32,000 nucleotides of DNA, taken from the NCBI GenBank assembly GCA_043808785.1, contig JAZDEL010000002.1:237611-269610 (forward strand). Direction: 5' to 3'. Numbering within the stretch: position 1 is the first letter of the stretch; the number at the start of each line of letters is the position of its first letter. Below, piece after piece: positions 3,162 through 31,251 of the stretch. The notes beneath the pieces were generated by a model. That model searched no databases and had not been told where the DNA came from. It was given only the letters and a program-made list of their open reading frames with translations. Source of the DNA: Candidatus Iainarchaeum sp. GTDB taxonomy: Archaea; Iainarchaeota; Iainarchaeia; Iainarchaeales; JAZDEL01. Made by a program: the position numbers and the translations under genes.

Positions 3162-3309
3162 GCGCGGGAATACGCGGGCTGGAATGCGGCCTGCCTGGCG
3201 CGCGGAAGCCCGTAACCGGAACGCGGTTTTCAGGCGTATGCGGAATGCCTCCGAAAAGCTTTCTATTATAGTGGAAAGGTTTTTAAACAAAACATGCTAT
3301 TATAGTGTT

Positions 3310-4572
3310 ATGGATTTTGACACCATAATCAGGGAACAGCGGGAAGAGCTCGAGCGCATAGGGAAACAGGAAATCCTGGTGCCGAGGGAAAAGCTCGGGG
3401 ATGCGGAAAGGGCGCTGAAATTCCCGAACATCCTGGCTGTTCTCGGCGTCAGGAGGTGCGGCAAGTCGATTTTTTCGTATCTGCTGGCGAAAGGCGGGGC
3501 TTTCGGCTATGTGAACTTTGATGACGAACGCCTTCTGGGCGCAAAGGCGGAGGATTTGAACCTGATTCTGGAATCCTTCTATAGGCTCTACGGCGATGTC
3601 GAATTTGTTGTCCTGGACGAGGCGCAAAATGTCAGGGGCTGGGAACTGTTTGCAAACAGGCTGAGGCGGACCAAAAAGGTAATATTGACGGGCAGCAACT
3701 CAAACCTCCTGTCGGGGGAACTGGCAACGCACCTTACGGGCAGGCATTCCGATGCGGTTCTTTTCCCATTTTCTTTCAGGGAGTTCATTAAACTGAAAAA
3801 GTTCGGGGAGAGCGCGGCATACACCACGAAGGAAAAGGCAATGCTGCTCAGGCTTCTTGAGGAATATCTCCGGGACGGCGGCTTTCCGGAAGTACAGAAA
3901 TTCGGCGGCAGGACGGCTTCGCTTATATACGAGGACATTCTGGCGAAAGACATCCTGCTGAGGCACAAAATAAAAAAGATTGAGGAGATGAGGAAGCTTG
4001 CCAGATACCTCGTAACAAACTCCGCGAAAGAGTTCAGTTATGCGAAAACCGCAAAACTGCTTTCAATAAAGCACGTTGCGACAATGTCAAAATGGACTGG
4101 CTATCTTGAGGAAGCCTTTCTGGTGTTCAGGGTGGAGAGGTTCGACTTCAAGCTGAAGCGCCAATTCCTGGCGCCGAAAAAAATATACTGCATCGATACG
4201 GGCATGATGGGCGCCGCGGGCTTCAGGGTTTCGGAAAACAGGGGCGTGCTGATTGAGAATGCCGTAGCTGTAGAGCTGAGGAGAAGGGCTCAGTGGAACG
4301 AGGAAATATACTACTGGAAAGACTACCAGCATAGCGAGGTGGATTTTGTGGTGAAGGCGGGGGAAAAAATCAGGCAGCTGATTCAGGCAAGCTATGCAAA
4401 CTCCAGGGAAGATATACGGGAGCGCGAGCCGAACGCATTAATAAAGGCAAGCAGGGCGCTGCGGTGCAGGGACCTCCTGATAATCACATGGGGCTACGAG
4501 GGCACAATCGCCGCAAAGGGGCACAGGATAAAATGCACCCCGCTCTGGAAATGGCTGCTGGCGGGGCGATAA
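3310..4572 (+). CDS. AAA+ ATPase of the archaeal COG1373 type (AAA_14 + DUF4143-like C-terminus)
   Basis: Walker A LGVRRCGKS, Walker B FVVLDEAQ, and a C-terminal nuclease-fold-like block YYWKDYQHSEVDFVV. I moved the start to ATG 3310 (MDFDTIIREQ). The upstream 42 codons of the tracked ORF are R-rich and overlap the promoter region (TTTTTAAACAAA at 3280-3291). Confidence 0.8.
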   Translation: MDFDTIIREQREELERIGKQEILVPREKLGDAERALKFPNILAVLGVRRCGKSIFSYLLAKGGAFGYVNFDDERLLGAKAEDLNLILESFYRLYGDVEFVVLDEAQNVRGWELFANRLRRTKKVILTGSNSNLLSGELATHLTGRHSDAVLFPFSFREFIKLKKFGESAAYTTKEKAMLLRLLEEYLRDGGFPEVQKFGGRTASLIYEDILAKDILLRHKIKKIEEMRKLARYLVTNSAKEFSYAKTAKLLSIKHVATMSKWTGYLEEAFLVFRVERFDFKLKRQFLAPKKIYCIDTGMMGAAGFRVSENRGVLIENAVAVELRRRAQWNEEIYYWKDYQHSEVDFVVKAGEKIRQLIQASYANSREDIREREPNALIKASRALRCRDLLIITWGYEGTIAAKGHRIKCTPLWKWLLAGR

Positions 4573-5654: not shown

Positions 5655-5726
5655 GGGCGGTTGGTGTATCGGCAGCACGCAGTCCCGATGCGGCTGAGGC
5701 GGCAGGTTCAATTCCTGCACCGCCCA
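5655..5726 (+). tRNA. tRNA gene with atypical anticodon loop (anticodon GAU = Ile if read conventionally)
   Basis: Hand-folded 72-nt cloverleaf. Acceptor GGGCGGT/ACCGCCC. D stem GTGT/GCAC. Anticodon stem CAGTC/GGCTG. Anticodon loop CCGAUGC. Variable loop AGGCG. T arm GCAGG-TTCAATT-CCTGC. Discriminator A, followed by a TGTTTTTT tract. C at position 33 and G at position 37 are non-canonical. Confidence 0.6.
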
Positions 5727-5994: not shown

Positions 5995-6417
5995 ATGCCG
6001 CAAACCAAAAACAACAGCGCGCAGGGTTCGATGGAATACCTCCTTCTCATAGGCGGAGTTGTGCTTGTTGCCGTCGTTGTGATACTGTTACTCCTGCAAA
6101 CCTCGCAAAGTGCGGGGAGCGAGGTTAATGCAACTGCAGAGGGAGGGGTTGCAAGGATGAAGGAAGAAGCAGGCATTGCACTTGGCGAGCTGGACACAGT
6201 TGTTAAGTTGGATTCTGGAAAAATTGGCGCCCCAACAGGGGCTGCAAACCTAAGCGGGTTTGCTACTGGAATCCTCAAGCCGCCCTCTGGTAACGGCGGC
6301 TCGGAGGGAGGGGGAATCGATGGCGGAGAGGACGGCGGCAGTGTGGGTGCGTTATTCACTTTCAATCAGGGAGGGGGAAACATCCAGCGAGATTTGCCCG
6401 AGGTGAAAGAACAATGA
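5995..6417 (+). CDS. archaeal type IV pilin-like protein with class III signal peptide
   Basis: The N-terminus MPQTKNNSA-QGSMEYLLLIGGVVLVAVVVILLLL matches the QXSXEXXXL class III signal motif (DUF361-type) followed by a hydrophobic helix. The tail is G/S-rich. The stop overlaps the next ATG (ATGA at 6414-6417). Confidence 0.8.
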   Translation: MPQTKNNSAQGSMEYLLLIGGVVLVAVVVILLLLQTSQSAGSEVNATAEGGVARMKEEAGIALGELDTVVKLDSGKIGAPTGAANLSGFATGILKPPSGNGGSEGGGIDGGEDGGSVGALFTFNQGGGNIQRDLPEVKEQ

Positions 6418-9400
6418 ACCGCTGTGCGCTCGCGCTCTTGGCATTCTTCCTTGTCTTTTCAGGCTCAGCATTCGCTGAACAGGTTGTAGCCTACAAGGGT
6501 GAGGTGCAGGCGCTGAACACGCACGACTTGTTTTACTCTGTAGGGCTGAAAGAGAATACTCCAAACAGGATTGACGCCTGCGGGGAAACCCCCGCATACT
6601 TGATTTATTTCTCTAACGAAACAGGCAGGGTTTATGGCTGGAACCTGAAAGAAAAGCGCTGGGAGCAGGCGCTGATTTCCGAACTTTATTCACAGCTTGA
6701 AGGCAACCCAATAGACGCCTTTGCCTATGTCGCATCCCTTGGCATATTTGAAATAACGTCCGGCAATAAGGCCTGGGTAATAAAGGATGGCAAAATCAGC
6801 GACACGCCATATAACATAAGCGAAATTGCGGCGGCGCAGTGCGCAGGGCTTGCAAAGTGCCCGGACCGTGCCGATGCGATAGCATTTTACAAAGATGCCG
6901 AGGGCAAAGACCAGTTCGTCTGGACTGTGAACAACGGCGCAAGCCTTGACATATGGTTTTCAAAAGGCGGGGCGCTGCACTACAACAGCGCGGCATTCGA
7001 TAAATTGGGCTTCTTCAACGGCAATCTTATGCGCATTGACGCAATCTGCACCCTCCCTCCCGGCAATCTGCTAGTGTTCGGGGAGGGAGGATACACTGGC
7101 GGAAGCGCAGGCGAGATTGGAGAGAACACAAAACTACTGAGCAAATATTCGGATAAGGAAGTTTTCCTTGTTTCCGACAGGGACTGGCGCGAGGTTCTGC
7201 CGCTTGTGCCTGTTACTACGTGGACTGAGAAAAACGGCGAGGTGAGGAAGTATCCGACATTGATTTGGCACGAGGAGGGTGGAGATATAAGCAAACTATA
7301 CCTCTCCACGGACCATTCCGACAGCGAACATTATGTGGGGTTCAGATTAGGTCTTGAAGGGGGAAGCGGCTCCTACGGAGAGAAGCAAAAATTCAGCAAA
7401 ACCTATAATTTGCAGCCTGGTGAGGAGTTGATTCTTTATTACACTCTCCGGACATATTACGACACCACAGTTACGAATATTGAAATAACCGAAAAACCGG
7501 ATTTTATTGAGTTTGTCGACCCGGCAGACGGAAAAATTGATAATATAAACCGCCAAATGCCTGACGGCGAAACCTTCGAATTCCGGCTCAGGGTCAAGGA
7601 AGATGCTGATACGGGGACAGAGGCAGCCGGGTTCGATGCGGATTCGGTGCTTTATTTCATGCAGCAGTACGGCGCCCAAAAAGCGACTGTTGTTGGGCAA
7701 ACCCCGCAGGAGCTTGACGATTTAATTCCTGCCGAAGCGCAAAGGATTTATGCAGGGGATTACCTCTCATACTGGGAGAAATTCGACATGGTTGTTTATG
7801 TGGCGGACAATTACGAACTCGCATTGCTGGCTTCCACCTACGCATCGCTCTTAAATGCCCCCATGGTTATTGAAGGCACTGCTGAGGATTCCCGAAATGT
7901 GTTTGCGGGCAGGAATGTTATCTGTGTCGGGAACCCAAGCGGCGCTACCTGCGATAGGCAATTTAGTCTTGAGGATTTGCAGAGGGAGTATGTTAAAATC
8001 ACAAATACGGACAAAATAATGCTGGTCAATCCGGATGATTTGGGTGATAAAGTGGAGGAGAAATTTCAGCCGGAAAAGTCGGCAAGCCCTATTTATGAGC
8101 TTTACGGAAAAACCTCGTTGGTTGCGCCAATATTGGCTTCCGCAAAGCATGAATTGATTATAACAACCAATAACCGGGGGTATGGGGAAGTAGACTCTGA
8201 TTTTACAGGAAGGTTTTTGGGGCTGTTTGGTTTTGACGAGGACAGCTTTAATACAAAAGAATGCAAAACAGGAGACTCCTGTTCAGGCGGGTGGGGCACG
8301 TATGGTTTGGAGGTAAAAGAGTCAACAGGGGACAGCATTAATTATAAATTCGATGTTGGGGATATTAACCTTGCCGATATCGAATATATAGGTTTAGAGA
8401 AGCTGCTTGTAAAGGTGTCCTGTATCATGGAAGCAGAACCATCTTACATTATCTACGTTAATGGCCAAATGCATGCGCAGTCAGATGGTTTCGGCTTTAG
8501 GTGGGATAGTCTGCTTGAGGGATATATATCGCCTGCATTACATAGTGGCAACTTATCGGGAACCCCTCTTGAAAGTCCCAAGCTGGATGTTACCGTTCAA
8601 ATCCCCGACTGTAAGATTATTAGAAGACTTGATAGAGGTGACAAGATTCTTGGGGTGACTTTGAGTGACAGTAGCAAGGAGTATTCGTTCCTTGAAGAAA
8701 CAGGCGTAACAGAAAAAACAATAGGGATTAAAGGAATTGAAGCAGGGCAGGAGGCATATTTTGATTTTAGTGGTTTGGACAATGCGCTGGATTACAGGAT
8801 TCTCTTGTATTTTGCCGGGAGCCAAAGCCCAAGGGCCTGTGGAGAATCTGAATGCAAAGGGCCGTATTTCAATGGCAGAGAAACAGCAATAATAAACGGA
8901 AATGAGATATCCAATGGGCAAGCCAGAATAATTGTTAAAGCCAATTCCGAATTAGAATATGGCATTTTGCCTTTAGCCTCAGTAAAGTTAATTCCATTGC
9001 TGCCAAAGGATTTCTACCTGACAATAATGTCCTCGCCGGATGCTATTCAGATGAGCTCTGAGCCAAACGGGCAACTTAGACTTAGAGGTGCGCTTGATTT
9101 TTATTATTCTACATTAAATAGAAATTATTACCCCGAAGAAGGACGGATACCCGAGCTCGGTTTTTTAACTAAATTATACACGGGCAGGATTTTTGGCATT
9201 AGCCCGTCAGATACTTCTGCTTATACGGCAAGAGACTTATTTTTTGGTCAAATTGAGAAGGATAGGTCCGGGTCATTTATTCTGCGCGGCGACAGCCAAG
9301 AGTACGGTGCAGAAGACACAAAAGAGTTGATGAACATAGACTGGTACTGGGGCAAAGACGGTTCGGACATTTACAGCAAGTTTCCTGATGGGGTTTATGT

Positions 9401-9878
9401 CTGCTACAGCTATAATGATGAGGATGTCGGTTGCGATACTCACAGTGAAGATACAAAAAACAGTTATTATAATTCATATTTCACGCTGTATAAAGACCAC
9501 GGCAATACGGAATGGGCATTTGTTAGCAGTTATGATTTAGCCAACCGTTATATGCAGCCAAAAACAAACATTATTTCTGCATGCGATACCTGTGATTTTG
9601 CGCAGTCAGAGGAAGACAATCGGACAGGGAGTTTATTTTGCATGCAAAACCTGAGGAGGGGGGCATTGAGCTATATTGGAACGCAATCTATCGCGTTGCA
9701 GTCCTCAGACTATATCGTCCCTATGATCCCCCTCCTGGTTTTGGACAAGATGACTATTGGGAAAGCATTTCATATGTATAGTGATACGACTAGCTGGGGC
9801 TGGCCCATATATTATCTTTTAATTGGCGACCCAACCTTAACGCCAATATACTGGAATGGTCAAAATGACGCAAAATAA
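6414..9878 (+). CDS. large secreted surface protein (1154 aa) with possible clan-CD (gingipain/C25-like) cysteine peptidase region at the C-terminus
   Basis: Signal peptide MNRCALALLAFFLVFSGSAFA-EQ. GAGGTGA SD at 6400-6406. Near the C-terminus there is a His-Gly (KDHGN; His codon 9498-9500) and an Ala-Cys (ISACDTC; Cys codon 9582-9584) about 28 residues apart, as in caspase-fold peptidases. No other domain recognised with certainty. Confidence 0.8.
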   Translation: MNRCALALLAFFLVFSGSAFAEQVVAYKGEVQALNTHDLFYSVGLKENTPNRIDACGETPAYLIYFSNETGRVYGWNLKEKRWEQALISELYSQLEGNPIDAFAYVASLGIFEITSGNKAWVIKDGKISDTPYNISEIAAAQCAGLAKCPDRADAIAFYKDAEGKDQFVWTVNNGASLDIWFSKGGALHYNSAAFDKLGFFNGNLMRIDAICTLPPGNLLVFGEGGYTGGSAGEIGENTKLLSKYSDKEVFLVSDRDWREVLPLVPVTTWTEKNGEVRKYPTLIWHEEGGDISKLYLSTDHSDSEHYVGFRLGLEGGSGSYGEKQKFSKTYNLQPGEELILYYTLRTYYDTTVTNIEITEKPDFIEFVDPADGKIDNINRQMPDGETFEFRLRVKEDADTGTEAAGFDADSVLYFMQQYGAQKATVVGQTPQELDDLIPAEAQRIYAGDYLSYWEKFDMVVYVADNYELALLASTYASLLNAPMVIEGTAEDSRNVFAGRNVICVGNPSGATCDRQFSLEDLQREYVKITNTDKIMLVNPDDLGDKVEEKFQPEKSASPIYELYGKTSLVAPILASAKHELIITTNNRGYGEVDSDFTGRFLGLFGFDEDSFNTKECKTGDSCSGGWGTYGLEVKESTGDSINYKFDVGDINLADIEYIGLEKLLVKVSCIMEAEPSYIIYVNGQMHAQSDGFGFRWDSLLEGYISPALHSGNLSGTPLESPKLDVTVQIPDCKIIRRLDRGDKILGVTLSDSSKEYSFLEETGVTEKTIGIKGIEAGQEAYFDFSGLDNALDYRILLYFAGSQSPRACGESECKGPYFNGRETAIINGNEISNGQARIIVKANSELEYGILPLASVKLIPLLPKDFYLTIMSSPDAIQMSSEPNGQLRLRGALDFYYSTLNRNYYPEEGRIPELGFLTKLYTGRIFGISPSDTSAYTARDLFFGQIEKDRSGSFILRGDSQEYGAEDTKELMNIDWYWGKDGSDIYSKFPDGVYVCYSYNDEDVGCDTHSEDTKNSYYNSYFTLYKDHGNTEWAFVSSYDLANRYMQPKTNIISACDTCDFAQSEEDNRTGSLFCMQNLRRGALSYIGTQSIALQSSDYIVPMIPLLVLDKMTIGKAFHMYSDTTSWGWPIYYLLIGDPTLTPIYWNGQNDAK

Positions 9879-10779
9879 AACCAAAATGATTTTTTTCCTT
9901 ATTTTAATTAGCCTAATTACTGCCCCGTTGGGTTCAGCCCAGTCAATTTCCAAATTAGAGTTAAATAAGGCTATTTATTCCTTAAACGATAGCTTGGTAG
10001 CCAATATAACCATAGAAAATCCATCAGACAGCGACCTCTCATTGCAGTCTCTGATGCTCCACTCAGAGCAGGCAGTACCTACGGTTTCCAGGACGTATGA
10101 AATGCCGAGGGGGGAGACAAAAAGCATAACGCTCTATAATTTCAAAATAGATGAAACATATGAAAACGGAGAATACTTAATTATTGCAAGGCTGGTTGAC
10201 CCCCAAAATCCGGACAATGTTTTGGATTCAAGAGAGCTCGCTTTTTCAATCACTGGCTTGCCCGAGAAATTTGTTTTTGATTTAGAAAGTTGCAGGGACA
10301 GGGGCTGCGCAGAAAAATCAAAGATATTTGTAAAGGGGGAAATTATTTATCTGAATTTTGAGTCAGGGATTGAGGGGCCGGAAATAAGCGCCATGTTGAT
10401 TTTCCCCGGCAAAACAACGCAGCAAATTTTACTGCCATACTCATTAAAGGCAGAACAACTCGGCTCTTACAGGCTGGAGGCAACAGCCTCAGCGGAAGGC
10501 TGCAAGACAATGCAAAAAACATTCCAGTTTGTCGTAATCGAAAAGCACGCCGAGATTCCCTCGGCATCGCGGTGCAACGGCAACCATGTGTGCGACGCAG
10601 GGGAAAATGCGCAGAACTGCCCGCAGGATTGCCCTGGCCAAGGTGCGGGTATTGTAAATGTGCCTATGCAGCCTGCAGAGCCGCCAGCAGGCTTTGATTG
10701 GTTGCCAGTTATCGGTGTTGTTGTGCTGATTGCAGTGCTGGCTGTTGCATATTTCAAGGTGTTTAAGCCGCGCCAATAA
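9865..10779 (+). CDS. secreted, C-terminally membrane-anchored protein with Cys-rich motif
   Basis: Signal peptide MTQNKTKMIFFLILISLITAPLGSAQS. C-terminal TM plus basic tail WLPVIGVVVLIAVLAVAYFKVFKPRQ. Cys motif CNGNHVCDAGENAQNCPQDC. The start is ambiguous: ATGs at 9856, 9865 and 9886. I chose 9865 because it gives a basic n-region. Confidence 0.7.
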   Translation: MTQNKTKMIFFLILISLITAPLGSAQSISKLELNKAIYSLNDSLVANITIENPSDSDLSLQSLMLHSEQAVPTVSRTYEMPRGETKSITLYNFKIDETYENGEYLIIARLVDPQNPDNVLDSRELAFSITGLPEKFVFDLESCRDRGCAEKSKIFVKGEIIYLNFESGIEGPEISAMLIFPGKTTQQILLPYSLKAEQLGSYRLEATASAEGCKTMQKTFQFVVIEKHAEIPSASRCNGNHVCDAGENAQNCPQDCPGQGAGIVNVPMQPAEPPAGFDWLPVIGVVVLIAVLAVAYFKVFKPRQ

Positions 10780-17777: not shown

Positions 17778-17866
17778 CGGACGGGGAGGGATTTGAACCC
17801 TCGACCTTCTGCTTTCCCCATGGAATGTAGGAGGCAGATGCCCTATCCAGGCTAGGCTACCCGTCC
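17778..17866 (-). tRNA. tRNA-Arg (anticodon CCU) with 14-nt intron after position 37
   Basis: Acceptor GGACGGG/CCCGTCC. D stem GCCT/GGGC. Anticodon stem TCTGC/GCAGA enclosing CUCCUA + CATTCCATGGGGAA + A. T arm GAGGG-TTCAAAT-CCCTC. Discriminator G. TATA-like TTTTAAATTATTTT lies about 30 nt upstream on the minus strand. Confidence 0.85.
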
Positions 17867-24297: not shown

Positions 24298-24384
24298 GCC
24301 AGGGTAGCTCAATGGCAGAGCATTCGCCTCGTAATTCCATCGCGGGCAAGCGAAAGGTTGAGGGTTCAAGTCCCTCCTCTGGCT
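24298..24384 (+). tRNA. tRNA-Thr (anticodon CGU) with 15-nt intron after position 37
   Basis: Acceptor GCCAGGG/CTCTGGC (one G-U pair). D arm GCTC-AATGGCA-GAGC. Anticodon stem TTCGC/GCGAA enclosing CUCGUA + ATTCCATCGCGGGCA + A. T arm GAGGG-TTCAAGT-CCCTC. Discriminator T. Confidence 0.85.
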
Positions 24385-24446: not shown

Positions 24447-25715
24447 ATGGCTAAGCAGGATTTGGATGTAATAGACATCCACGGTTTTCGGAGGCAGTTA
24501 GACCATGTAATAGAGCGGAAGGTCAAGTGCCTCAAGCACGGCAATGCGGAGCGGCTTCTCCGCTGGGAGGATGAATACCGCTTCAAGGGCAGGCCCGTCA
24601 GCCTTGCAAGAAAGGTCAAGTTCCTTTGGATAATGTGCAACGTCTCGGAGATAATCGATGCGCCATTGGAGCCATTTGCCGAGGCACAGATTGAGAAGGT
24701 AATGCGGGCGATAACAAAGCGGGATTACGGAACGCACACCCTGTGCGAGTTCTCGAAGGATGTCTCGGTTTGGGTTCGCTGGATAAGTCCGAAGAATAGT
24801 CACGACATACTCAAGGAATCCGAGAAGTGGCTCAAGATTGAGAACCCTTACAACGACAGCAGGCGCAGCCTTAAAATCAAGCAGCAGCTCATAACTCCCG
24901 ATATGTTCCTCAAACTGCTCAATGCCGCGGAAGGGGACGAGCGCACAATCGCGGTCTTGTTTTACGGCTGCGGCTTCCGCCCGGGCGAGGTCGGGAGCAT
25001 AAGGCGCAGCGGGGTCACATTCAACGCTGACGGCAGTTGCGACCTTGATACTCTCGGCAAGACAGGCTATCGCGGGCCCGTAAGGCTGCGCTCCGACTTG
25101 GCAGGCTATGTCAGGCAGACATATGAGAACGCAAAGCTCAAGGCACCAGATGCCCCGCTGCTGCTGAACAGCAGAGGCAAGCCGCTGAAATACGGGTGCA
25201 TTGTTTTCACGCTGCAAAAGGTTTCAGTGATGGCAGGGCTTGGCAAGTGGGAATACCACGGCAACGGAAAAACAAAACACAAGGTCTATTCAGGCATACC
25301 AATCCGCCCAACGATTTTCAGGCAAACCCACACGACCTGGTGCCTGAAAAACATGAGCACCCAGATGGCTTGCAAGCGGATATGGGGTCGGGAGCACTCA
25401 AACATGATGCGCGTCTATTCGGGCATTACCTCCGAGGATGCGAACTCGGAGTATGACCAAGCTACTGGCAACAATCCTGTACAGGCGCCAAAGGATGACC
25501 TACTGAAAATGCGGGCTTGCTTCAAGTGCGGCAAGGTGTATGCTCCCACAAAAGAGGTTTGCGACATATGCAACATAGACCTGAACCCCGAGAAAATGAT
25601 GGAAAAGGTCGAGAATGCTCAGCGGGCGGATACGATGCTTGCCATCATTCAGGAACTGAGCCAGAGGGTTAAATCACTTGAAGGGGGCATACCTGCGAGG
25701 GCTGGCGGAATATAA
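24447..25715 (+). CDS. tyrosine recombinase / integrase with C-terminal zinc-ribbon
   Basis: Catalytic-type blocks FRPGEVGSIRRSG (Arg I), IRPTIFRQTHTTW (H-x-x-R region) and GREHSNMMRVYSGI (His/Tyr). C-terminal CFKCGKVYAPTKEVCDICN. ATG at 24447 is preceded by TATA-like CTTTTATATACC and AGGGGG. The tracked ORF start (24246) reads through the tRNA and was rejected. Confidence 0.85.
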   Translation: MAKQDLDVIDIHGFRRQLDHVIERKVKCLKHGNAERLLRWEDEYRFKGRPVSLARKVKFLWIMCNVSEIIDAPLEPFAEAQIEKVMRAITKRDYGTHTLCEFSKDVSVWVRWISPKNSHDILKESEKWLKIENPYNDSRRSLKIKQQLITPDMFLKLLNAAEGDERTIAVLFYGCGFRPGEVGSIRRSGVTFNADGSCDLDTLGKTGYRGPVRLRSDLAGYVRQTYENAKLKAPDAPLLLNSRGKPLKYGCIVFTLQKVSVMAGLGKWEYHGNGKTKHKVYSGIPIRPTIFRQTHTTWCLKNMSTQMACKRIWGREHSNMMRVYSGITSEDANSEYDQATGNNPVQAPKDDLLKMRACFKCGKVYAPTKEVCDICNIDLNPEKMMEKVENAQRADTMLAIIQELSQRVKSLEGGIPARAGGI

Positions 25716-26510: not shown

Positions 26511-27968
26511 TTACCCTGCCAGCCCGATAACATTCATCTCTGCCTTAGCGCCAGCTGCAGATCCCAATTGTCCAAACTGACAATTTGTGCATGCGGGGTC
26601 AAGGTAATACCAATTTCCATCTACTTGAACATTAACGAGCGCGTGGTTTGGGGAGAATGCAACACCGCCGTTCACATAGTATGAAATGTCATGTTCTGTG
26701 TCCTGAATCACAATTCGAACTGGGAACCCTACAGACAACATCATAGATGCGAGCAGTACTGACTTGTCCGCGCAATTTCCCGCCTTAAACTTCAGCGTGG
26801 CAGAAGGCGACTGCACCTGCTGGTGCAGAACGAGCGGAGTTTGGACATATTTGATTTCATCTCTGGCATAAATAAAAATTGCATTTGCCTGCTGAATTGT
26901 TCGGTCCCCTTCATAAGCGGCTGCACGCTGCGCCGCAATACTTCTCACATTCGGGTCGATAGGGTTGATTGGTTTAAGCAAATCGCTATACTCATAAATT
27001 GTCGTAAACATTTGGCTACCGCTGAACTCAAACTCTACATCTGGCACACCCTTCTCAATAAGGCCCTCCAGTTTTTCAAGCGCCTCAATTCTTGGGTATA
27101 ATGTGGCGCACCCCCCGAAACTCAAGTTAATCAATTTTGAAGCCTCTGGTTTTTCAAGCACAAACGTTTTGCAGTCAGCCGCATCCTTTTGGAGCGCCAC
27201 CCTGACATTTTTAATAATATAAAGTTTTGGCTCTAATGCCCGAATGGTCTTTATGTCACTTCCCTCGTCGATATGCGGCACTATCTCCGTCTGCAGAGTG
27301 CAAAGCGAACTCGCATCCCTTAGCAGTATGTCGGTTACTTCTTTGCCATCTTTGAAGTTGCCTAGCATATTTTCAGAATAAGTCGGGTAGAATCCTGCAA
27401 ATGCATTTGGTGCCTTCTCTTTCAACTCGTTTAACGCAACATCTGCCTCTGTAACTTCGGGTATTATTTCGACGAACCCCGCGTTAAATTTAGATATGTA
27501 TTCCATCGCCTTGCATGGGTCATTGCTCTGTGCACCGGGTACTTGTGCCTCGACACTTATAACTGCAGCATCTACGGCTGTGTTGCCAATTTTGCGCATT
27601 GCGTTGCCCGTAAGCTCGGAATTTTCGACCCATTCCCTATTCGCTTGCCTTATTTCTTTAGGAAGCAAAGCAACATAATGCTCAACCATACCATTTTCCT
27701 TTAAGTATGTCGCAAATCCCTCTAAAATTGTGGCGCACCTGTCAATCTCCGCCTTTTTCATTTCAGCTTGTTTGTCGGTTTCTTGGAGTGTCGGGACCCA
27801 TCCACGGACTACAAGGCTATCTGGGCAACTTGCCCACCCCGCACTGAATTCAGCAAACTTTTTGTTGAATTGCTCTGTCTGCGCAGAATCATACGCAAGA
27901 AAAGCCAATCCACAAAGAACTATGCCGACCACTACTGCGCCAATAATGAGGATGGTTTTACGTTGCAT
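26511..27968 (-). CDS. membrane-anchored transglutaminase-like (Cys-His-Asp) domain protein
   Basis: N-terminal TM ILIIGAVVVGIVLCGLAFLAY. The C-terminal core is KAGNCADKSVLLASMMLSVGFPVRIV...NHALVNVQVDGNWYYLDPA. This matches the G-x-C...H...D pattern of the transglutaminase-like superfamily. Confidence 0.7.
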   Translation of the reverse strand: MQRKTILIIGAVVVGIVLCGLAFLAYDSAQTEQFNKKFAEFSAGWASCPDSLVVRGWVPTLQETDKQAEMKKAEIDRCATILEGFATYLKENGMVEHYVALLPKEIRQANREWVENSELTGNAMRKIGNTAVDAAVISVEAQVPGAQSNDPCKAMEYISKFNAGFVEIIPEVTEADVALNELKEKAPNAFAGFYPTYSENMLGNFKDGKEVTDILLRDASSLCTLQTEIVPHIDEGSDIKTIRALEPKLYIIKNVRVALQKDAADCKTFVLEKPEASKLINLSFGGCATLYPRIEALEKLEGLIEKGVPDVEFEFSGSQMFTTIYEYSDLLKPINPIDPNVRSIAAQRAAAYEGDRTIQQANAIFIYARDEIKYVQTPLVLHQQVQSPSATLKFKAGNCADKSVLLASMMLSVGFPVRIVIQDTEHDISYYVNGGVAFSPNHALVNVQVDGNWYYLDPACTNCQFGQLGSAAGAKAEMNVIGLAG

Positions 27969-28202: not shown

Positions 28203-28313
28203 ATGGCTGCATATCATGCGGATACGCAGGTTTCGCAAAGGGGAAACCCTTTCGACACAGCCGATGACTGCAACTTCTTCGGCAGGAAAACAAACGGGAG
28301 GTGCTCGCCGTGA
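28203..28313 (+). CDS. hypothetical 36-aa ORF (first of three coupled small ORFs)
   Basis: GGAGGTGA SD ends about 7 nt before ATG 28203. Peptide MAAYHADTQVSQRGNPFDTADDCNFFGRKTNGRCSP. The TGA at 28311-28313 overlaps GTG 28310 of the next ORF. It is too short for the ORF track. Confidence 0.35.
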   Translation: MAAYHADTQVSQRGNPFDTADDCNFFGRKTNGRCSP

Positions 28314-28519
28314 ATGTCAAGGAACTTACAGTTTCCGTTTCCCAGAAGGTCAATCTGGGAAATTTCCAATCTAAGGGCATAGGGCTCGGCATAACAGTCG
28401 AACTCAACGATAAAGACGACCTCTTCAAAACCAAACAGCAGTGCGCCGACAAACTCAACCAGATGCTGGACTTTGAAATAAGGAAAATAAAAGTCCAGAA
28501 CGGAAAGGGGGCGGAATAA
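28310..28519 (+). CDS. hypothetical small protein (69 aa)
   Basis: GGGAGGTG SD at 28295-28302, then GTG at 28310 (tracked start GTG 28301). Sequence: NVKELTVSVSQKVNLGNFQSKGIGLGITVELNDKDDLFKTKQQCADKLNQMLDFEIRKIKVQ. The TAA overlaps the next ATG (TAATG). Confidence 0.55.
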   Translation: MNVKELTVSVSQKVNLGNFQSKGIGLGITVELNDKDDLFKTKQQCADKLNQMLDFEIRKIKVQNGKGAE

Positions 28520-28884
28520 TGTCCGCCCCTCTCAAATGCATAGATATGGAAAAACTGAAACAAATCTACGGCGAACCAATCAGCGTTTACACCGAGGAGC
28601 AGGGGCTCAAGGACGGCGTTCTGCATTTCTTCGGCAGGGGCGCGGGAAACCGCCGCCTGCTTTTCACCGACAGCGTGATGGGCGCATTGGCGGAGGGCGG
28701 AAACGCGGAGAAGCGCCCGAACCTCGAAAGGCTAACCGACCTGTTCCTCGAGGGCTTCGAGGCGCTGCGCGAACCCGATGAAGAGGACAGCGAATACATG
28801 AAACTGCGCAAAATCCAGCGCGGGAGGTTCTGGGTTATCGAGGAACTCGGAAAAATAACCCTCATGCTGCCAAGCGACTATTAG
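28519..28884 (+). CDS. hypothetical acidic protein (121 aa)
   Basis: G-rich SD-like stretch AAAGGGGGCGG upstream of ATG 28519. Sequence: MSAPLKCIDMEKLKQIYGEPISVYTEEQGLKDGVLHFFGRG...REPDEEDSEYMKLRKIQRGRFWVIEELGKITLMLPSDY. The stop is followed by the hairpin GGGGGC-ATC-GCCCCC. Confidence 0.6.
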   Translation: MSAPLKCIDMEKLKQIYGEPISVYTEEQGLKDGVLHFFGRGAGNRRLLFTDSVMGALAEGGNAEKRPNLERLTDLFLEGFEALREPDEEDSEYMKLRKIQRGRFWVIEELGKITLMLPSDY

Positions 28885-28900
28885 GGGGCATCGCCCCCTT

Positions 28901-28962
28901 GGCAGGGATGCGCCGAACTTGGCAGAGGCGCGGCGCGCGCGGGTTCAAATCCCGCCCCCGCC
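28901..28962 (+). pseudogene. tRNA-like remnant lacking an anticodon arm
   Basis: GGCAGGG AT GCGCC-GAACTTGGCAGA-GGGCGC-type D-arm-like hairpin, then GCGGG-TTCAAAT-CCCGC (T arm) and CCCCGCC, which pairs with GGCAGGG apart from one A:C mismatch. At 62 nt it is too short for a tRNA. Confidence 0.45.
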
Positions 28963-28965
28963 TTC

Positions 28966-29008
28966 GGGCGCCGCTTAGTTGGGCAGAGGCGGGCGGCGCC
29001 CTTTATTT
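28966..29008 (+). terminator. GC-rich hairpin + T-tract at the GC/AT composition boundary
   Basis: GGGCGCCGC (28966-28974) pairs perfectly with GCGGCGCCC (28993-29001). TTTATTT follows. Confidence 0.45.
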
Positions 29009-29030
29009 ACGTATGCAGGCGTGTCGTTAA

Positions 29031-29041
29031 CTATATTAATT
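29031..29041 (+). promoter_or_regulatory. TATA box of the DAC-like gene
   Basis: CTATATTAATT lies 28-38 nt upstream of ATG 29069. Confidence 0.4.
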
Positions 29042-29068
29042 GTTTTTGGGAGAAGGCTATATTGTCCT

Positions 29069-30871
29069 ATGGCTCTCAAAAAAACTATCAAATATTTCAT
29101 GTGGGGTTTCCAGCACCATTTCTGCGGAGGTTTAGAAGTTGAGGCTGGCTTGTTGTTTGAGCGCCTATCCCCAAAACTGAACCCCAAGGTATTCTTAATA
29201 GGCGTACTTGAAGATGAAGGCGTTGAAGGACATCCTGTATGTGTTGAACCCGAAGATTGCGGAATATCTGTTGATGCGTTTGCTAATATTAAGGAACGTG
29301 CATCTGCGCTTTATGAATCGCATCCGAACAAAAATATGTGGCACTCGGTTGAGCACGCCCATAAAATCTTTCATGCACAACTTCAGGATGAATGTTTTTC
29401 GAATGCAGTTCAAGAAATATTAGATAAACACTTCGGGAAGGCGGGCATCTCCAGTTTTTTATCTCACCCAATTGTTATTTTAGGTTATAAAGTAATTGTT
29501 GTGCTTCAATTTAAAAAAATTATTTTGGGCAGCCTTTGTTTCCTCAGCAAGGACAAACATTTGTTGGGGGGCTCAAAACATCACGAAATAAACCTTTCAA
29601 GGTCTTTACTTGAATCAGTAATACACGTATTCCTTCGAGAAAGTTTCTTGGCCTTGCGCAGCCCAATGCCGGGGCAATACTTACAAATCATGGAGCGAGA
29701 TTATGATGAAATAATCAGAGATGGAGGCGTTAATTTTATGACCTCTATTGCGCTTCGCTCTTCTGATGAAGGCTATTCTGCCACAAGGTTATTCCCAATG
29801 TTTCATTCTGTTTCTGCGTTGAACTACGAAGGGCGTGCAGGCTCAGGGCGATTAATAATCTCAAAGAAAGGGCACCCAAATGTAAAAACGGTATTGTTAT
29901 TTAAGCATGAAATACGTCTCAGTAATTCTAGGGGAATAAGAGCCTTGCTAGAGTTGACTACTCACGAATCATACTTATTAACAAATGGCGAAGCCGCTTA
30001 TGGTGTAGGAGAACTTCAAGGCACATATGGCCCTGATAATGAAGACCTATTTGTTGTAGAATTCGAGGGACACTACAATTGGAAAGTCCTGCATAACCAC
30101 AAGACAGTTATGGTTGTTAAGGCTGGCTACCCTAGCGTATCTAGGCCCCCTATTGACACGGAAAAATTTAAGTCAGACTTGCAGAGGATATTTACTAAGT
30201 TTAACACTGGTGACATTGAGTTGTTATGGGAGTTATCTACGGCTGCAAGTCACCAGAAACATGGCGCACTTCTTATAATTTCAGATGGAGCTGCTGAAGA
30301 GGCTGTGCGCTTATCTGGCAGCGGAACACTTATAGCCCCTATAAAAGTAACCTCTGGATTAATAGGCCAGATTACTTCGATAGATGGGGCAATATTACTT
30401 GACAAACATTGCACATGCTATGCTGTCGGGGCGATTTTGGATGGCGATGCGACTTCTAAGGGTAAAACTACAAGGGGGTCAAGGTATAATTCTGCAATTA
30501 GATATGTAGAGCATATTTCGCCTAAATATAAGTCATTAGCGATAATAGTGTCCTCGGATGGCACAGTAGATATATACCCCGATTTATTGCCCCAAATTTC
30601 AAAAGTAGAACTCGAGAAACATGTCGACACATTGAAAGAGCAAGCGGAGTTGGAATCTGTAGCGTATGAAAATATTCGTGAATCCATAGTATGGCTAAAC
30701 GACCATCGGTCATATTTAACAAAAAAATATTGTGATGAGGCAAATACTGCTTATTCAAAAATTAAGCCCAAACTGAAATATGAAGGGCTGATGATCGTGT
30801 TAAATATCTTGCGACCAAATGAAGAAATAGACGACTCTTATTTTATAGAATCAAACGAATCGCCTAGTTGA
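29069..30871 (+). CDS. 600-aa protein: unknown N-terminal region + diadenylate cyclase (DisA_N/DAC)-like domain + helical tail
   Basis: DAC-like blocks in order: HGALLIISD, IDGAILLD (DGA, nt 30383-30391), AVGAILDG, TRGSRYNSAIRYVE (RYN at nt 30482-30490, where DACs have RHR), SLAIIVSSDGTVDIY. I set the start at ATG 29069 (MALKKTIKYF). The upstream 30 codons of the tracked ORF run through the hairpin and promoter. Confidence 0.75.
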   Translation: MALKKTIKYFMWGFQHHFCGGLEVEAGLLFERLSPKLNPKVFLIGVLEDEGVEGHPVCVEPEDCGISVDAFANIKERASALYESHPNKNMWHSVEHAHKIFHAQLQDECFSNAVQEILDKHFGKAGISSFLSHPIVILGYKVIVVLQFKKIILGSLCFLSKDKHLLGGSKHHEINLSRSLLESVIHVFLRESFLALRSPMPGQYLQIMERDYDEIIRDGGVNFMTSIALRSSDEGYSATRLFPMFHSVSALNYEGRAGSGRLIISKKGHPNVKTVLLFKHEIRLSNSRGIRALLELTTHESYLLTNGEAAYGVGELQGTYGPDNEDLFVVEFEGHYNWKVLHNHKTVMVVKAGYPSVSRPPIDTEKFKSDLQRIFTKFNTGDIELLWELSTAASHQKHGALLIISDGAAEEAVRLSGSGTLIAPIKVTSGLIGQITSIDGAILLDKHCTCYAVGAILDGDATSKGKTTRGSRYNSAIRYVEHISPKYKSLAIIVSSDGTVDIYPDLLPQISKVELEKHVDTLKEQAELESVAYENIRESIVWLNDHRSYLTKKYCDEANTAYSKIKPKLKYEGLMIVLNILRPNEEIDDSYFIESNESPS

Positions 30872-31251
30872 GTGATACCGCTATTTGCTGGCTCCGCCAG
30901 TTTCATCTGCCCCTTCCTCTTCCTCTCCAGATGTGCCAGCACCCTCGCAGTCTCCGCCATCTCCGCAACGCGCCTGTCCTTCAGCATCTCAAAAGTTTCT
31001 TTTATATCCCCGACGAAATAATCACCGCCCTCTGCGCGGCGCCCTGCAATGCCCGCGTCGAACAAATCCGTAAGGCACTGCTTAACCCTGCTGGGCCTGA
31101 GCCGCGCCTCTGCGGAAATCTCCTCCACGGTCTTCGGCGAAGAGGCGAGGAGCGCGTTGAAAACCCGCGCATGGTCAACCCCGAACCCGAGGCCGAAAGT
31201 TTCGAACAGCTCCCCCGCAACAGTAACCTCACAGCCGTCCTGCCGCTTCAT
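30838..31251 (-). CDS. TrmB/MarR-like winged-helix transcriptional regulator
   Basis: FGVDHARVFNALLASSPKTVEEISAEARLRPSRVKQCLTDLFDAGIAGRR fits the TrmB N-terminal wHTH pattern. ATG at 31251. The last 11 codons overlap the DAC-like gene convergently. Confidence 0.7.
   Translation of the reverse strand: MKRQDGCEVTVAGELFETFGLGFGVDHARVFNALLASSPKTVEEISAEARLRPSRVKQCLTDLFDAGIAGRRAEGGDYFVGDIKETFEMLKDRRVAEMAETARVLAHLERKRKGQMKLAEPANSGITQLGDSFDSIK

Follow-up and report, generated by a model that had tools for sequence, protein, structure and literature searches.

A CdaG-family diadenylate cyclase gene in a compositionally foreign segment of a Candidatus Iainarchaeum contig

We analysed a 32,000-nucleotide stretch of DNA from Candidatus Iainarchaeum sp., a DPANN archaeon (assembly GCA_043808785.1, contig JAZDEL010000002.1, positions 237,611 to 269,610 of the forward strand; hereafter the window, numbered from its first letter), and in it a gene of low guanine-plus-cytosine (GC) content whose product ends in a diadenylate cyclase (DAC) domain and a helical tail. 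The protein is almost certainly a member of the CdaG family of diadenylate cyclases. Our preferred reading, to which we give a probability of roughly 0.55, is that this product is an acquired, sensor-regulated synthase of an adenine-containing nucleotide signal, probably antiviral, with an effector that is unlinked or unrecognised. An initial annotation of the same DNA, made by eye, had proposed an acquired sensor-cyclase fusion with an aberrant catalytic motif. The acquisition, the DAC identity and the logic of a sensor joined to a cyclase all carry over into our reading, whereas neither the fusion nor the motif turns out to be new.

Domain architecture, family and active site

The longest open reading frame (ORF) at the locus runs on the forward strand from a TTG at 28979 to 30871. 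We took ATG 29069 as the start because the family alignment begins at MxxxxKYFMWG, which gives an uninterrupted frame and a protein of 600 amino acids (aa), 100% identical to the NCBI hypothetical protein V1676_02750 from a Candidatus Diapherotrites metagenome-assembled genome. Pfam recognises a DACNG, a DACNH and a catalytic DAC domain in succession (Table 1). The N-terminus of about 390 residues, initially described as unknown, is thereby assigned to two domains that carry the Pfam label 'probable sensor', and the DAC profile, above its gathering score, falls within residues ~390-520 where the eye had placed it. DACNG-DACNH-DAC with a C-terminal helical bundle is the architecture of the CdaG family, named by Galperin in 2023 according to the definition quoted in the PanDA preprint (PMC13640721). 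A sensor-cyclase fusion of this kind was thus already defined in Pfam and named, and the gene is better annotated as a CdaG-type diadenylate cyclase than as a new fusion.

The NCBIfam model NF053872, 'DS2_3_antiphage', aligns with the protein from end to end (residues 7-591 on model positions 1-576) at 552.7 bits. 'DS2_3' denotes the third gene of DS-2. The latter is a three-gene Escherichia coli system, comprising a patatin phospholipase, a CD-NTase and a DAC protein, that was validated against phage in the DefensePredictor study (PMC13092281). We recovered the DS-2 operon from a Citrobacter plasmid and an E. coli chromosome; an alignment of the window protein with the DAC protein of the Citrobacter plasmid covers 571 aa at 30% identity (E 4e-86). 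On the chromosome of E. coli AR_0128 (L082 2069-9746) the operon adjoins a second, canonical CapV-DncV-E2 cyclic-oligonucleotide-based antiphage signalling system (CBASS).

Relatives of the window protein occur in at least 589 species-representative genomes, spread over many bacterial phyla and several archaea, and 694 clusters at 50% identity reach E <= 1e-30. Two full-length CdaG copies were also present on IMG/VR contigs. When 1.84 billion representatives are grouped at 50% identity, the window protein itself remains a singleton, its best relatives being 38-41% identical.

An AlphaFold2 (AF2) model built on 116 sequences is very confident throughout, with a predicted local distance difference test score (pLDDT) of 93.7 and a predicted template-modelling (TM) score of 0.90. 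Foldseek matched it to DisA and CdaA structures with probability 1.0, the TM score to CdaA catalytic cores being ~0.6. Alignments with DisA cover 210-228 columns (E 3e-6 to 3e-5), as against ~135-165 columns for the CdaA catalytic cores. Because the DisA alignments outrun those to the CdaA cores, and because helices are predicted between residues 512 and 568, the model suggests that the helical tail is a DisA-like region able to position the DAC domains of different protomers. An HHpred hint of a DisA linker in the E. coli protein is given in the supplement of PMC13092281. Eight CdaG relatives from Hymenobacter and Solirubrum (L045, L052, L056, L062, L064, L067, L070 and L075) have no such C-terminal helical tail; they are 507-524 aa long and match query residues only as far as ~502-510.

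The same comparison fared differently at the other end of the protein. Neither the full model nor a separate model of residues 1-375 (pLDDT 86.7) gave a significant Foldseek match in the Protein Data Bank (PDB) for the N-terminal domains, and the best hit for DACNG/DACNH, GvpF (E 0.019, TM < 0.2), was treated as no match. Nor could we reproduce the statement in the literature that DACNH is a very distant or degenerate DAC: hhalign gave a probability of 0.2%, a profile search of PDB sequences found nothing to link DACNH with DAC, and the first 50 Foldseek hits obtained with the 1-375 model include no DAC structure. A search for viral structural relatives at E <= 0.001 returned none. An HxxEH string (H92-H96, nt 29342-29356) that had been singled out as the only recognisable feature of the N-terminus is due to chance, occurring in 2 of 116 relatives, with E95 replaced by proline in 88 of the 116, and we rule out a metal site on the same grounds. 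The positions initially read for this string, for the DGA motif and for R-Y-N (R472-Y473-N474, nt 30482-30490) are nonetheless all exact.

The DAC block order had likewise been drawn correctly by eye. A profile built from the DAC regions of 22 relatives aligns with the Bacillus cereus DAC structure 2fb5 over the same blocks, pairing IDGA with HDGA, RG[AS]R[YF]NSAI with LGTRHRAAI and SED with SEE. The RHR signature of the DAC superfamily is absent, and R472-Y473-N474 stands at the aligned position. Relative to RHR, CdaG proteins keep the first arginine, replace the histidine by tyrosine or phenylalanine and the second arginine by asparagine, and gain an extra invariant arginine, R469, three residues upstream. 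This is not a peculiarity of the present gene, as had been supposed. In an alignment of 116 relatives, on which all our conservation counts are based, R469, G470, R472, N474 and S475 are invariant and position 473 is Tyr in 97 and Phe in 19, so that R-G-[AS]-R-[YF]-N-S is a property of the family as a whole. The E. coli DS-2 DAC protein, for which defence has been validated, has R466-Y467-N468 together with D433-G-T, and D433 aligns with D439 of the window protein.

Since R-Y-N is common to the whole CdaG family and to an active E. coli protein, it marks a subfamily and not a loss of function. Canonical DACs require RHR: Mycobacterium tuberculosis DacA neither binds ATP nor is active once its RHR has been replaced by AAA (PMC3328451). 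We infer that R-[YF]-N and R469 form a re-arranged yet functional phosphate-binding pocket, not a dead site, and such a pocket could alter the substrate or the product. R-G-[AS]-R-[YF]-N-S with its extra upstream arginine is a sequence marker that predicts altered phosphate handling in this DAC subfamily. Taken together, the two features that first made the gene look singular, its 'unknown' N-terminus and the change of RHR to RYN, are both properties of a named family with a validated anti-phage member.

Composition and insertion signs

The CdaG gene has a GC content of 0.405 and a third-position GC content (GC3) of 0.369, lower than in all other genes of the window; the housekeeping genes there (ArgG/H, Nop5, fibrillarin, NMD3 and an aminoacyl-tRNA synthetase) have GC3 values of 0.60-0.72. 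GC changes sharply at both ends of the gene, from 0.75 to 0.33 near 29000 and from 0.39 to 0.57 near 30880. Because of these steps and the compositional minimum between them, the description of the gene as a low-GC single-gene insertion was a fair one: it sits as a ~1.9-kb low-GC single-gene segment beside a tRNA/integrase element. Judged by its composition and by the tRNA fragment and tRNA-integrase element next to it, the gene is horizontally acquired and foreign to its genome, and the CdaG family here reaches a DPANN archaeon as a recent single-gene acquisition.

The left edge of the segment presumably coincides with an archaeal promoter, to judge from the AT-rich, TATA-like sequence just upstream of the gene (Table 1). 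Further upstream, the GC hairpin and tRNA-like scar of the initial annotation are both real. The scar consists of a T-arm and acceptor strand, and tRNA searches of the window called no intact tRNA there. It is possibly the remnant of an old attachment site. A 23-nt comparison with the 3' end (24362-24384) of the tRNA gene that precedes the integrase-like gene gives only 78% identity, much of it in generic T-loop sequence. As the attR of that tRNA (24298-24384) the fragment has no exact partner in the window, and no attachment-site pair could be defined. No terminal repeats or target-site duplication were found flanking the low-GC segment. A TTGG(G)CAGRGG-type motif occurs three times (28898, 28918 and 28979) around the tRNA fragment, where the GC content is 61-75% (28898-28998).

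The presence of an integrase island nearby was borne out, in that the integrase-like gene comes directly after the 24298-24384 tRNA gene. On the other side, the convergent TrmB-like gene overlaps the CdaG gene by exactly the 34 nt (30838-30871) reported at the outset, although its GC content, put at ~65% from sampled lines, measures 57% overall. The last 11 codons and the stop codon of the TrmB-like gene lie within the low-GC CdaG DNA, and the inserted DNA appears to have replaced the original 3' end of this gene.

Table 1. The CdaG gene, its domains and motifs, and flanking features of the window
Feature	Position	Strand	Basis and remarks
CdaG-family diadenylate cyclase gene	29069..30871	+	600 codons plus stop; ORF list, Pfam, NCBIfam
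DACNG domain, residues 11-224	29099..29740	+	PF21752, E 1.4e-51, model positions 1-208 of 208
DACNH domain, residues 241-343	29789..30097	+	PF21750, E 5.6e-24
DAC catalytic domain, residues 393-503	30245..30577	+	PF02457, E 3.9e-9, 36.6 bits vs gathering score 27
C-terminal helical region, helices 512-526, 534-545, 552-568	30602..30772	+	AF2 secondary structure
DGA motif, D439-G440-A441	30383..30391	+	D and G invariant among 116 relatives
R469-G-S-R472-Y473-N474-S475, family-wide in place of G-T-R-H-R-A	30473..30493	+	Aligned to 2fb5
Presumed promoter, AT-rich (GC 0.33), with TTTATTTA and TATATTAA as TATA-like strings	29000..29068	+	Read from sequence, GC step
GC hairpin, 7-bp stem, -13.3 kcal/mol	28883..28899	+	Just past stop codon of 121-aa ORF upstream
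tRNA 3' fragment, 22 nt, T-arm and acceptor strand	28941..28962	+	Single occurrence in window
tRNA gene, 87 nt, probably intron-containing	24298..24384	+	Rfam RF00005, 60.3 bits; missed by ARAGORN
Tyrosine-recombinase-like integrase	24447..25715	+	Pfam Phage_integrase E 1.6e-4 (below cut-off); PHROG integrase E 7e-7
TrmB-like helix-turn-helix gene, convergent, host-like GC	30838..31251	-	ORF list, Pfam, GC

A probable antiviral signal and its alternatives

The one member of the family with experimental data speaks for an immune role. E. coli DS-2 no longer defends its host when the DAC protein carries D433A or 'R468A' (PMC13092281). In the near-identical WP_001593457.1, residue 468 is asparagine and the nearest arginine is R466; the mutation published as 'R468A' (Table S11 of PMC13092281) thus falls in the R-Y-N motif, the exact residue being uncertain. 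An independent study of the same system, under the name CBASS-DAC, found that a DAC mutant abolishes immunity to phages T5 and Rao1, that a cGAS mutant has minor effects only, and that defence is suppressed by Acb1 but not by Tad1, Tad2 or Acb2 (PMC13069673). The same work reports protection only at low multiplicity of infection and an operon found in Pseudomonadota only, puts forward a sensor-cyclase model for the E. coli relative, and describes an E. coli CdaG that appears to activate a phospholipase. The suggestion that the DAC domain has become a nucleotide-binding module is disfavoured by these results, in which DAC point mutants abolish defence and a nucleotide-cleaving enzyme, Acb1, suppresses it.

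If the window protein works in the same way, then the DACNG/DACNH module would hold the enzyme off until a trigger is sensed, which in the E. coli relative is phage infection. With the helical tail positioning them, the DAC domains from two protomers would then meet face to face and join two nucleotides to form the adenine-containing signal. This signal would be read by a non-adjacent receptor or effector, encoded elsewhere in the genome or not yet recognisable. An unlinked reader is plausible because there is an archaeal precedent, a TIR-SAVED effector that responds to the cyclic di-AMP (c-di-AMP) of an unlinked host cyclase, DacZ (bioRxiv 10.1101/2025.06.19.660554).

The surroundings of related genes were examined over 10 kb around each of the 80 most similar loci from species-representative genomes. 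Some close relatives sit in defence islands. The gene for one of these, P0004 (L090 8001-9797), overlaps an upstream Eco57I-type methyltransferase gene and a downstream PD-(D/E)XK nuclease gene by a few bases each in an operon-like layout, and lies beside GmrSD, a context other than CBASS. The PanDA preprint describes CdaG branches as enriched in antiphage and mobile-element neighbours (PMC13640721). A thaumarchaeal relative lies among small unknown genes.

Several results weigh against this reading. Most relatives lie outside recognisable defence contexts. CBASS genes occurred near only ~8 of the 80 loci, so that the search of homologue neighbourhoods for conserved partners found a known one in a small minority and unrelated housekeeping neighbours elsewhere (esterase, EamA transporter, arginyl-tRNA synthetase, glycosyltransferase, aldehyde ferredoxin oxidoreductase, MscS). 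The copies in Pedobacter and Hymenobacter seem to be syntenic within their genus, with a GC content like that of the host. In the window, which ends 1.1 kb downstream of the gene, no six-frame ORF of at least 50 aa matches CD-NTase (DS-2B), DncV, patatin or Cap15-like profiles at E <= 1, and PADLOC has no hit for the CdaG gene or its island neighbours. The NF053872 score lies below the equivalog cut-off of 630 bits. The texts consulted report no test of the product, trigger or oligomeric state for any CdaG. Finally, of 82 highly conserved columns, 7 carry a residue in the window copy that is not the family consensus, against a median of 2 among the relatives; K292A and F548S are seen in none of the other 115 relatives, and E496S is a further departure.

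The profile and PADLOC searches uphold, for the window, the initial statement that no separate effector gene is visible. A Pfam scan of the 20 larger window ORFs likewise gave no SMODS hit, and PHROG had no hit for the CdaG gene and only the integrase among its island neighbours.

The departures at conserved columns can be set beside the rest of the alignment. All 26 family-invariant columns are kept in the window protein, including D439, G440, R469, G470, R472, N474, S475, S495 and D497. Nine of the other 115 relatives deviate at conserved columns equally or more, and position 496 is not Glu in 12 of 116. The window copy is a divergent but not visibly decayed member of its family.

The principal alternative is that the protein serves ordinary physiology, such as osmotic or ion homeostasis, as a ligand-regulated synthase of c-di-AMP or a related molecule that happens to have been acquired horizontally; its role would be that of the stand-alone CdaG copies which some bacterial genera inherit stably. 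We consider this a real but lesser possibility. The synteny and host-like GC of the Pedobacter and Hymenobacter copies are what a non-immune signalling enzyme would look like, and to these can be added the ~72 of 80 loci with housekeeping neighbours and without a CBASS gene within 10 kb, as well as the Pfam view of DACNG and DACNH as probable sensors. Synteny at normal GC had been named beforehand as an outcome that would speak against acquisition; it appears to hold for these two genera, but 25 of 76 related loci are poorer in GC than their flanks by more than 5 points, and in 9 of the 76, as in the window, the deficit exceeds 10 points. Further, the window copy is strongly foreign in composition and lies at a tRNA/integrase hotspot, the only family member tested by experiment takes part in defence, defence islands harbour some of the closest relatives, and CdaG branches show the enrichment in antiphage neighbours already mentioned. 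An antiviral role remains our preferred reading.

A separate question is the identity of the product. The enzyme may be a canonical c-di-AMP synthase, with R-Y-N equivalent to RHR and plain 3'3'-c-di-AMP as the product, a proposal that we consider less likely than not. The protein retains its DGA motif, GALxxI strand and S-[ED]-D block in the register of canonical DACs, Foldseek finds the same fold, and the E. coli system is blocked (PMC13069673) by Acb1, an enzyme that cuts cyclic nucleotides containing adenine. However, two of the three RHR residues are changed family-wide and R469 is newly invariant. Because the change of RHR to AAA inactivates M. tuberculosis DacA, this argues for a re-modelled pocket. 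The Tad1, Tad2 and Acb2 sponges, moreover, fail to inhibit CBASS-DAC (PMC13069673). Given the range of Acb2, the failure of the sponges hints at an unusual CBASS-DAC signal.

Beyond our preferred reading, a bolder one can be framed for the family. Stand-alone CdaG proteins, which form the large majority of the sampled relatives, might be a self-sufficient or trans-acting class of immune sensor in bacteria and archaea, with a re-modelled R-G-x-R-[YF]-N pocket whose product is not 3'3'-c-di-AMP. In the DPANN archaeon studied here, either an effector that is unlinked or still unrecognised would respond to this signal, or one of the two domains without a structural assignment, DACNG or DACNH, would itself be the effector. 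We regard this as speculative and rather improbable as a whole.

Least probable of all, and in our view distinctly unlikely, is that the gene is an orphaned or altered remnant, left over from a CBASS-DAC-type operon or drifting towards non-catalytic nucleotide binding: the lack of partner genes in the window, the sub-threshold NF053872 score, the singleton status and the seven departures (with K292A and F548S unique and E496S next to the invariant D497) could be read in this way, but the 600-codon frame is uninterrupted, every family-invariant residue is kept, position 496 varies elsewhere too, other relatives deviate as much or more, and the AF2 model is very confident over its whole length.

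Other genes of the window and comparison with known systems

Genes in the remainder of the window include those for fibrillarin, Nop5, NMD3 and an archaeal-type phosphopantothenate synthetase, which mark the window as archaeal. Within the tRNA/integrase-associated segment, 26511-27968 (-) encodes a 485-aa protein with a C-terminal transglutaminase-core domain (GC3 0.46). Between this transglutaminase-like gene and the tRNA fragment lie two ORFs of 72 and 121 aa (28301-28519 and 28519-28884, +) with a stop/start overlap, ATGA; they gave no family hits, and their layout resembles that of a toxin-antitoxin pair. Two tRNA genes, 24298-24384 (+, 87 nt) and 17778-17866 (-, 89 nt), are found by Rfam and missed by ARAGORN, probably owing to introns; by eye, the former resembles a tRNA-Thr(CGU) whose intron follows position 37. 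Towards the left end, 3184-4572 (+) encodes an AAA_14 and DUF4143 ATPase with a match (E 2e-95) to PDC-S01, a candidate defence family of PADLOC. Two overlapping ORFs of 1154 and 307 aa (6414-9878 and 9856-10779, +; GC3 ~0.49) follow shortly downstream of a tRNA-Ile (5655-5726). Neither has a Pfam, PADLOC or PHROG hit, and the region 6414-10779 is a second candidate island.

Compared with the CdaG family at large, the window protein has the same three domains in the same order, the helical bundle, and a length in the usual class of ~575-600 aa. It differs in its DPANN host and in its position as a singleton lineage whose best relative is 40-41% identical. The DAC protein of DS-2/CBASS-DAC is a full-length homologue with which it has the D-G-x and R-Y-N motifs in common; the E. 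coli DAC gene, however, belongs to a three-gene operon, whereas that of the window stands alone in 32 kb.

The minimal DACs (PanS) of the PanDA and Panoptoo systems also place a DAC domain in antiviral immunity and are carried on mobile DNA. PanDA/Panoptoo acts as a decoy or guard system, while CdaG is a large protein with presumed sensor domains (PMC13640721; PMC13640738). DacZ, the housekeeping archaeal diadenylate cyclase, resembles the window protein in having an archaeal host and a DAC domain, but its architecture differs, no DacZ-type hit was obtained for the window protein in Pfam or NCBIfam, and the window gene is compositionally foreign.

DisA has an N-terminal DAC domain with the canonical RHR and a C-terminal helix-hairpin-helix (HhH) DNA-binding domain. 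In both DisA and CdaG the DAC fold is followed by a helical region. CdaG, however, carries a 390-residue N-terminal extension, has R-[YF]-N in its active site, and has no HhH domain.

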